A DNA stretch of 64,000 nucleotides from Escherichia coli (GCF_002854065.1 NZ_CP024147.1); one strand, 5' to 3'. Numbered from the stretch's first letter, positions 51,207 through 53,024 are shown. Made by a program: numbers and translations. The notes: generated from the letters alone by a model not told the origin.

Positions 51207-51710
51207 ACAGAAATTGTTATTTAGATAAATATGGCGATGCAAATATCAATCATTATTATAGAAACTTAGAAATAAAACACTCACAACCCAAAAATAGAGC
51301 ATCAAGCAAAAGAGTAAGTTAACATCATTGTTAATTAATTCGACTAGTCAGTAAATATGCTGACTGGTCGAACATAGTTTACTAAAAAGTCATCACTGAC
51401 TGATGTCAGTCACACCATCCGCCAGTTCAATCTTCGGGTATTTCCAGCGTATCTCGGCACGCGATTGCTGGTCTGTTGATGTAGTGGATTGTTGTTGCTG
51501 ACTTTTCTTACCCTCAGATTTCTGCCCCCTGTCAACTCAATCTGCCAATAAATAACATAATTATATTTTTCCTTATATGAATTCCTTTTTAAAATAGCGA
51601 AGCCACTGTAAAAGATACTTTTTGTATAGATCTAACAACCGTAATAAAACAAACAGTCATAACTCATTATAAATAATGATAAAATAACGTCTTTTATTGA
51701 TAATTTACAT

Positions 51711-52310
51711 ATGAAAAAAATTTTCCTTTTGTTATATTATTTCTGTTTTCCCTCCCTCTGATTATTTTTTACCAACCCTGGGTCACTGCATTATCGCCAA
51801 CGCCCCGACACGTAATTCCTGAGCAATGAGAAAAAACAGTTCGTTATCTTACACAAACTGTGCATCCACGTAATGCCGACAATATTGATAATCTGAATAG
51901 GTCCGTAGAGTATATAAAAGAGGTCTTTGTCAGTAGCGGTGCCAGAGTTACCGCGCAGGGCGTCCCCGATTGGCTATTACGACTCTGCGCCTGGAAGCCA
52001 GAATTACCCTTACCCGGCAATGTCCTGGCTTTATCCCGATCGGGGAGACTTTATTGCCGTGGTCGGCAGAATGCAGGATATCAACGCCGTTCGTCAGGTA
52101 AAAGCGGCATTGTTGTCATCTCAGGATTTATCTGTTTATTCTATGAATGCCCCAGGGTTTATTCCCGGTATTGATTTCTCTGATCACCTGAATTATTGGC
52201 AACACGATATTCCCGCCATAATGATTACTGACACCGCTTTTTATCGTAATAAACAATACCACTTGCCCGGTGATACCGCAGACAGATTGAATTATCAGAA
52301 AATGGCTTAG
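51711..52310 (+). pseudogene. yfbL: Decayed M28-family peptidase gene (yfbL-like remnant), interrupted by several frameshifts or stops
   Basis: ATG at 51711 encodes MKKIFLLLYYFCFPSL then a stop; downstream fragments in two frames (51860..52174 and 51927..52310), the last ending ...HLPGDTADRLNYQKMA; about 600 bp total versus roughly 1 kb expected. Confidence 0.5.
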
Positions 52311-52454
52311 GTAGTGGATGGTGTTATAACTTTGTTATACAACAGTAAATAATAAAAATTTCTCGAGGCGGGTCCAGAAAAAGCGACATGCACATTTTAT
52401 TTTCCCTCATCTGTTTTAAGATGCGAAACATGAAATTCAACGGAGGAAAAATAA

Positions 52455-52958
52455 ATGGGAATGATTGGCTATTTTGCAGAAATTGACTCAGAAAAGATTA
52501 ACCAACTGCTTGAGTCTACTGAAAAACCTTTGATGGATAATATACATGACACGCTTTCAGGATTACGCCGACTGGATATTGATAAACGCTGGGATTTTTT
52601 ACACTTTGGGCTGACAGGCACCTCTGCTTTTGATCCCGCGAAGAATGATCCGCTGAGTCGTGCCGTGCTTGGTGAACACAGCCTCGAAGATGGCATAGAT
52701 GGCTTCCTTGGATTGACCTGGAATCAGGAGTTAGCCGCGACAATCGACCGACTGGAATCACTGGATCGAAATGAACTGCGTAAACAGTTTTCCATTAAGC
52801 GACTCAATGAAATGGAGATTTATCCGGGAGTGACCTTTTCAGAAGAGTTAGAGGGGCAACTCTTTGCCTCGATCATGCTTGATATGGAAAAGCTGATTAG
52901 CGCGTATCGACGTATGCTGCGACAAGGGAATCATGCGCTGACGGTTATTGTTGGGTGA
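52455..52958 (+). CDS. yfbM: DUF1877 family protein YfbM
   Basis: 167-aa ORF; synteny. Confidence 0.8.
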   Translation: MGMIGYFAEIDSEKINQLLESTEKPLMDNIHDTLSGLRRLDIDKRWDFLHFGLTGTSAFDPAKNDPLSRAVLGEHSLEDGIDGFLGLTWNQELAATIDRLESLDRNELRKQFSIKRLNEMEIYPGVTFSEELEGQLFASIMLDMEKLISAYRRMLRQGNHALTVIVG

Positions 52959-52973
52959 TGGTGTCAGGGCTCC

Positions 52974-53000
52974 AAAAAAAACCGCCGAACATGTCGGCGG
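52974..53000 (-). terminator. Rho-independent terminator downstream of nuoN (end of the nuo operon)
   Basis: On the minus strand, hairpin ccgccgacatgttcggcgg followed by a T8 run. Confidence 0.6.
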
Positions 53001-53024
53001 CTTTCTGACTTACAAACTGATAGC

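Follow-up and report, generated by a model that had tools for sequence, protein, structure and literature searches.

The best described counterpart of the locus reported here is that of Escherichia coli K-12 MG1655, which occupies the same site between rbn and the nuo operon. Alignment with the K-12 locus (whose coordinates, designated L001, are used below for all blastn comparisons) gives the order elaD–yfbK (minus strand)–yfbL–yfbM–yfbN (minus strand)–yfbO–yfbP–nuoN (b2269–b2276), and the K-12 order that had been given in an earlier note on this DNA proved to be correct. Literature searches on the yfb genes yielded incidental mentions only. The distribution of elaD was reportedly surveyed by Catic and colleagues in 2007. 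A more recent study (Wang et al. 2025, PMC12575377) gives elaD in 66.6% of 530 strains, describes the phylogroup B2 lineages ST131 and ST95 as lacking it, and lists some branches in which it is prematurely terminated. Our results are in line with these values, as elaD is present in 4,188 of the 5,426 complete E. coli genomes that we compared and the copy described below is frameshifted. A term search of the same article found no mention of the yfb genes or nuoN, and variation in yfbK, yfbL and yfbNOP is apparently not covered there.

We examined a stretch of 64,000 nucleotides from the E. coli chromosome (GCF_002854065.1, NZ_CP024147.1; hereafter the window), in which the interval of interest lies at about 51207–53024. 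The closest common arrangement is that of O157:H7, O145:H28, BL21 and many B1/E-type strains, whose yfbL copy is labeled by RefSeq as an M28 family peptidase or hypothetical protein, frameshifted. This haplotype matches the window in its yfbK-deletion junction, in a 4-bp and a 326-bp deletion of yfbL, and in the direct junction between yfbM and nuoN. The window differs from it in that its yfbL has two further lesions, both nonsense codons, and its elaD is frameshifted twice, and it lacks the extra −1 frameshifts present in the 3′ half of yfbL in O157 and AHS8C65RI. With high confidence, we interpret the interval as one major natural haplotype of a variable, non-essential region of E. coli, onto which a few recent, lineage-specific point lesions have been added.

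Layout of the interval compared with K-12

The window carries, in order, rbn (ending at 49914), elaD, an AT-rich gap, a broken yfbL, yfbM, a 66-bp spacer and nuoN on the minus strand. When set against K-12, this arrangement reads elaD–(yfbK scraps)–yfbL remnant–yfbM–nuoN. A blastn comparison of the two loci yields four collinear blocks: window 48901–51432 with L001 3513–6035 (96.4% identity), 51455–51967 with L001 7594–8121 (80.7%), 51968–52959 with L001 8448–9439 (99.6%), and 52977–55000 with L001 12001–14024 (98.2%). Three K-12 segments are missing, which amount to 1,536 of the 1,728 bp in yfbK, 326 bp within yfbL, and the yfbNOP island in its entirety (2,561 bp). Genes shared with K-12 are closely similar, including elaD (95%), the two ends of yfbL (92% and 99%), yfbM (100%) and nuoN (98%). 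In contrast, the 5′ end of yfbK, the intergenic region and the 5′ end of yfbL are together only about 81% identical to K-12, which indicates that the window carries a different deep haplotype there.

The earlier note had listed yfbK and yfbNOP as apparently absent, and relative to K-12 this is accurate, with yfbK reduced to fragments and the yfbNOP site occupied by 17 bp. It had also placed the interval roughly where we find it, although its left boundary is wrong, as the elaD pseudogene extends past 51206 to 51322. Likewise, the approximately 500 bp that were described as AT-rich and non-coding are indeed AT-rich (29–32% GC at 51450–51900), but the second half of the description does not hold, since this stretch includes a 116-bp tail of elaD, a hairpin, three fragments of yfbK and an old promoter region.

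There is no support for a hidden sRNA or riboswitch within the AT-rich stretch, as an Rfam scan of positions 49800–53200 returned no RNA families at E ≤ 0.1. A consensus scan for promoters and terminators gave promoter-like counts no higher than those of shuffled sequences. The same scan overlooked the obvious nuoN terminator, which was found by folding. It was left out of the evidence, and its negative results should be treated with caution.

Remnants of elaD, yfbK and yfbL

The elaD pseudogene, a member of the ElaD/SseL family of deubiquitinases, spans 50102–51322 on the plus strand when aligned with the intact alleles of O145, O157 and AHS8C65RI. As the earlier note had stated, the gene is frameshifted, and the alignment assigns the damage to changes in the length of two A runs. 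A +1 frameshift results from eight A nucleotides at 50838–50845 where intact alleles have seven, and a −1 frameshift results from five at 51153–51157 where intact alleles have six. Thus, the unbroken frame of approximately 403–410 codons expected for a CE-clan deubiquitinase is lost. The gene is divided into open reading frames at 50102–50848 and 50835–51206 plus a tail to 51322, the last 116 bp of which (51207–51322) fall inside the examined interval. Because the frame jumps out and then back, a mechanical list of open reading frames stops at 51206. Over approximately the last 55 codons the gene is again read in its original frame, and the segment of the catalytic domain that lies between the two frameshifts is read in a frame other than that of the N-terminus. 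A near-identical copy in strain CUWW06 is labeled "elaD, frameshifted" by RefSeq.

The elaD gene and the former yfbK gene converge, and the DNA separating their ends contains an inverted repeat with a 15-bp stem (51339–51372), which was identified by folding (−23.5 kcal/mol, z = −7.7). The hairpin is retained in K-12 and in every strain compared, and probably serves as a bidirectional terminator.

What is left of the coding sequence of yfbK (vWA / YfbK_C) consists of 40, 22 and approximately 120 nucleotides of the original 1,728, all on the minus strand. The 3′ remnant at 51393–51432 comprises the last 40 nucleotides including the stop codon, and is identical at 40 of 40 positions to L001 5996–6035 (nucleotides 1–40 when K-12 yfbK is counted in plus orientation). 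It is followed directly by an internal fragment of 22 bp at 51433–51454, which matches L001 6249–6270 at 19 of 22 positions. We considered that these 22 bp might be filler sequence, and dropped this idea since they match an internal yfbK site in K-12 and the collinear site in E. whittamii, Escherichia sp. MOD1-EC7003 and E. albertii. A fragment stranded in this manner indicates that yfbK was lost either by two deletions, which measure 213 and 1,323 bp on the K-12 sequence, or by one complex event. The 5′ remnant, at 51455 to approximately 51577, corresponds by blastn to K-12 yfbK nucleotides 1599–1719 and is highly diverged (76% identity), and its start codon is not preserved. Next to it, the former divergent promoter region of yfbK and yfbL (51578–51710) has a GC content of 29% and also differs strongly from the K-12 allele. 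Inspection of the deletion junctions gave no clear sign of microhomology, and we make no claim regarding the mechanism of deletion.

The yfbL pseudogene, derived from an M28 metallopeptidase gene, occupies 51711–52352 on the plus strand, as defined by alignment with the intact genes of K-12 and GN25. The homology to yfbL that had been proposed for the fragments is borne out by blastn, which aligns K-12 nucleotides 1–261 at 92% and 588–972 at 99% identity, and by tblastn, which recovers YfbL residues 6–87 and 197–323 alone and in different frames. The frame of approximately 323 codons is broken by four lesions. A 4-bp deletion follows position 51721, directly 3′ of ATGAAAAAAAT, at codon 4. Two in-frame nonsense codons are present, one a TTA to TGA change at 51827–51829 and the other a CAG to TAG change at 52308–52310. 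The main lesion is a 326-bp out-of-frame deletion at the junction of 51967 and 51968 (L001 8122–8447), which removes codons 88–196, approximately. The earlier note had described the gene as broken by stops and frameshifts in T6 and A6 tracts. These tracts, at about 51765 and 51831, are identical in intact alleles, and the note had missed the 326-bp deletion.

In K-12 YfbL, the Peptidase_M28 domain (PF04389) covers residues 95–317, and the deletion in the window eliminates its first, N-terminal half. A complete PF04389 domain is thus no longer encoded, and the residual C-terminal open reading frame of 127 amino acids (51927–52310) has no Pfam match at E ≤ 0.001. RefSeq labels the CUWW06 copy "hypothetical protein, frameshifted; internal stop", and the copies in O145, O157:H7 and others are likewise treated as pseudogenes.

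The two nonsense codons of yfbL and the two homopolymer frameshifts of elaD are the only lineage-specific features of the interval. The nearest complete genomes are those of CUWW06, with one mismatch in 2.9 kb, and of 100416 from The Gambia, with seven differences. With both of these strains the window shares the elaD −1 frameshift and the two nonsense codons of yfbL, and with CUWW06 alone it shares the elaD +1 frameshift, and so the −1 change is the older of the two. The next-closest genome checked, 2018-05-2CC (97.7% identity over the interval), has an intact elaD and neither yfbL nonsense codon.

The yfbM–nuoN junction and the yfbNOP island

The yfbM gene (52455–52958, plus strand) is intact, encodes 167 amino acids, and is identical to K-12 at all 504 nucleotides. 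Its product belongs to the DUF1877 family, matching Pfam PF08974 with an E value of 2.7e-35 over profile positions 1–162 of 163. The nuoN gene at 53025–54482 on the minus strand is also intact in the list of open reading frames, encoding 485 amino acids with 98.2% identity to K-12. The gap between yfbM and the nuoN stop codon is exactly 66 bp (52959–53024), in agreement with the intact yfbM and the spacing reported in the earlier note. Folding reveals the nuoN terminator within this gap at 52982–53000, with a GC stem of 7 bp and a loop of 5 nucleotides followed by eight U nucleotides when read on the minus strand (−21.5 kcal/mol, z = −4.2).

Comparison of junctions identifies this spacer as the ancestral state and as an empty site for the yfbNOP island. 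In K-12 the island covers L001 9440–12000, and in its place the window has 17 bp. No remnant of yfbNOP was found at the window junction, and these 17 bp are unrelated to K-12 sequence. The same 17-bp empty site is preserved in E. whittamii, in GN25 and in SCPM-O-B-8794 (L011). Furthermore, the island is low in GC content (36–45%, with elaD at 34–38% and the nuo genes at 55–59%), and is present in 946–1,013 of the 5,426 complete genomes, or approximately 18%, with 985 copies at 99% or greater identity to K-12. As judged from these comparisons, yfbNOP was probably never present at this site in the window and represents a minority insertion, the carriers of which are mainly K-12-like strains. That the window does not have it is therefore accounted for by the empty junction being the majority state, which is also kept in outgroups, and the earlier interpretation of this absence as deletion or decay is not supported, given that the direct junction occurs in 4,211 of the 5,426 genomes.

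Escherichia sp. MOD1-EC7003 adds a complication, since a yfbN gene (96% identity) is inserted at the same point, directly after the yfbM stop codon. This indicates that the island either predates any single E. coli lineage or has moved by recombination, and it means that the lack of junction scars, and of the island in most strains and other outgroups, is not an absolute test. The locus of this genome is truncated on the right, and the visible part of the island (L009 10505–11602) carries an additional 440 bp or so and an open reading frame of 191 amino acids (10656–11231) that is absent from K-12.

Population frequencies, ancestral order and repeated gene loss

Frequencies were obtained from BLAST hits among the 5,426 complete E. 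coli genomes and are counts of genomes rather than of events on a phylogeny. A megablast search with the whole interval was unable to separate haplotypes because pieces up to approximately 2.1 kb apart were merged, and it was replaced by short queries that span each junction, with strict E-value limits so that matches to one half cannot score. The interior of yfbK is present in 2,513 genomes and the 326-bp segment of yfbL in 3,297. The exact yfbK-deletion junction of the window occurs in 2,376 genomes and its exact yfbL-deletion junction in 2,031. The entire window-type arrangement is carried by O157:H7, O145:H28, O104:H4 and BL21, among others, and the window-type interval is common to more than one third of sequenced E. 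coli strains. The exact junctions are thus not limited to close relatives. With junctions shared by 2,031–4,211 genomes, the three major departures from the K-12 arrangement are old, common polymorphisms rather than the product of erosion in one strain.

Outgroups were gathered by a YfbM scan that used one genome per bacterial species. The resulting sampling is thin, as it yielded four loci, lacked the E. coli species representative, and did not recover E. fergusonii, E. marmotae sensu stricto or Salmonella. The four loci are those of E. albertii, E. whittamii, Escherichia sp. MOD1-EC7003 and SCPM-O-B-8794, the last of which is labeled E. coli, yet is divergent (approximately 85% identity to K-12 in rbn and elaA). 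In all four, rbn directly precedes yfbK, followed by yfbL and yfbM, and elaD is absent. The two that reach nuoN and lack the island, E. whittamii and SCPM-O-B-8794, share the 17-bp spacer of the window. Within E. coli, strain 19AR0253 has the order rbn–yfbK–yfbL–yfbM–nuoN with all genes intact and no elaD. Approximately 1,100 genomes have a yfbK allele in the same identity class (about 93%) as that of 19AR0253, a grouping that concerns the yfbK allele only. These ancestral-type loci resemble the window in their flanks and yfbM–nuoN spacer and differ in lacking elaD, with yfbK and yfbL being intact in 19AR0253 and variously decayed in other Escherichia. Together, they indicate that the ancestral order was rbn–yfbK–yfbL–yfbM–nuoN and that elaD and yfbNOP are later insertions, a polarity based on four outgroup loci. 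An intermediate state is represented by GN25, which has the same yfbK-deletion junction as the window along with a full-length, intact yfbL of the same deep haplotype. Thus, yfbK appears to have been lost before yfbL on this haplotype, in agreement with the counts of 2,376 and 2,031 genomes.

From the junctions, population frequencies, outgroup gene orders and nesting of lesions observed here, we infer an order and direction of events. Starting from the ancestral Escherichia arrangement, E. coli would have gained the low-GC elaD gene between rbn and yfbK. Two deletions may then have removed yfbK on one deep haplotype, leaving pieces of 40, 22 and about 120 bp. On a sub-branch, yfbL would have been inactivated by the 4-bp deletion at codon 4 and the 326-bp out-of-frame deletion. 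Finally, in a narrow lineage, the dead yfbL presumably acquired its two nonsense codons, and elaD its −1 and then its +1 homopolymer frameshift. Throughout, yfbM and the terminator of the nuo operon would have been untouched, and yfbNOP would never have been inserted.

This linear history is simplified. The 3′ half of yfbL together with yfbM is 99.6–100% identical to K-12, compared with only about 81% for the 5′ half of yfbL, and the haplotype of the window is thus a mosaic formed by recombination. BLAST junction counts do not separate spread by homologous recombination from vertical inheritance. The step in identity from 80.7% to 99.6% falls exactly at the yfbL deletion junction. Across window positions 51455–51760, which take in the start of yfbK, the DNA between the two genes and the part of yfbL that encodes the signal peptide, two deep E. 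coli haplotype groups lie about 18% apart, one formed by K-12 and MOD1-EC7003 and the other by the window, GN25 and MSB2_1A. This divergence is as large as that between Escherichia species. Introgression of 51455–51967 from another Escherichia was considered and set aside, as the sampled outgroups are 71–83% identical to the window and K-12 is 82% identical, leaving no obvious donor among the species sampled.

Several other explanations for the state of the interval can be weighed against these data. Recent erosion in this strain, of the reductive kind known from Shigella and in essence the reading of the earlier note, could in principle account for the loss of yfbK, of yfbNOP and of the greater part of yfbL. 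In its favor, four lesions (both nonsense codons of yfbL and both frameshifts of elaD) do occur in a narrow lineage alone, and only 5–11 genomes are at least 99% identical over elaD or the wider region. However, all three of the large-difference junctions are widespread in strains such as O157:H7, O145, O104:H4 and BL21, and the neighboring rbn, yfbM and nuoN genes are intact, which makes this explanation hardly credible. The idea that yfbNOP is ancestral and was precisely deleted from the majority of E. coli genomes, that of the window among them, is also very unlikely, if slightly less so. It gains from the yfbN gene of MOD1-EC7003 at the identical site, but it is opposed by the unrelated 17 bp that replace the island with no remnant, by the conservation of these 17 bp in E. 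whittamii, SCPM-O-B-8794 and GN25, by the low GC content of the island, and by its near-uniform copies in only about 18% of genomes.

Sequencing or assembly error at homopolymers would leave elaD and the yfbL remnant less damaged than they seem. Both elaD lesions are single-base changes in A runs, a type of error typical of long reads, and the +1 change is limited to the window and CUWW06. Set against this, the −1 change and both yfbL nonsense codons are each present in three separate assemblies, those of the window, of CUWW06 and of 100416, and this recurrence argues against error for every lesion except possibly the elaD +1. Moreover, the nonsense codons are substitutions rather than homopolymer length errors, and yfbL is dead regardless because of the 326-bp deletion common to 2,031 genomes. 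We therefore regard error as improbable, and retain the interpretation of the interval as a common natural haplotype with a few recent lesions.

The earlier note had proposed that a hotspot of gene decay and deletion lies beside the nuo operon. This description is fair for yfbK and yfbL, which have been inactivated independently across the genus with different breakpoints, and elaD has decayed as well, but it does not extend to yfbNOP or to large losses specific to this strain. At least five or six independent knockouts of yfbK or yfbL can be counted across Escherichia. The losses of yfbK include the two-step E. coli deletion, a different deletion of 1,468 bp in SCPM-O-B-8794 (L011 8546–8790), and a deletion of the type found in E. 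coli MSB2_1A. In that strain, the first 111 nucleotides of elaD are joined to a point approximately 57 bp upstream of an intact yfbL (L007 3398–3566), the result of a single deletion from elaD nucleotide 112 through all of yfbK. The losses of yfbL include the E. coli deletion, a different deletion of 738 bp in E. whittamii (L008 9668–9899), and an in-frame stop (W to stop) in the E. albertii type strain NBRC 107761 (L010, approximately 8927–9898). In E. coli, yfbL is apparently lost almost exclusively on a yfbK-deleted background (2,115 genomes without the segment, 2,031 with the exact junction).

Relaxed selection on dispensable genes would be the simplest reading of this repeated loss. Selection for the removal of yfbK and yfbL is also possible. 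A more specific and unlikely proposal is that the vWA protein and the M28 peptidase, which are divergently transcribed, function as a pair and that losing this pair is an advantage instead of being merely tolerated, for example because it presents an envelope or periplasmic target for phage or host defenses. If this were true, the divergence of approximately 18% at the 5′ ends of yfbK and yfbL could reflect alternative alleles that have been maintained for a long time.

The repeated loss provides a small pointer to the dispensability or cost in many niches of two uncharacterized genes. Otherwise, this standard and widespread haplotype matters little beyond correct annotation, and the arrangement, with yfbL and elaD recorded as pseudogenes, is real but ordinary and already captured by public annotation. 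It also serves as a reminder that K-12 is not an ancestral reference here, since its yfbNOP island was inserted in a minority of strains and its intact yfbK and yfbL genes represent one of two deep haplotypes. One further change in yfbL was observed in Escherichia sp. MOD1-EC7003, where the ATG start is replaced and codon 1 reads E.
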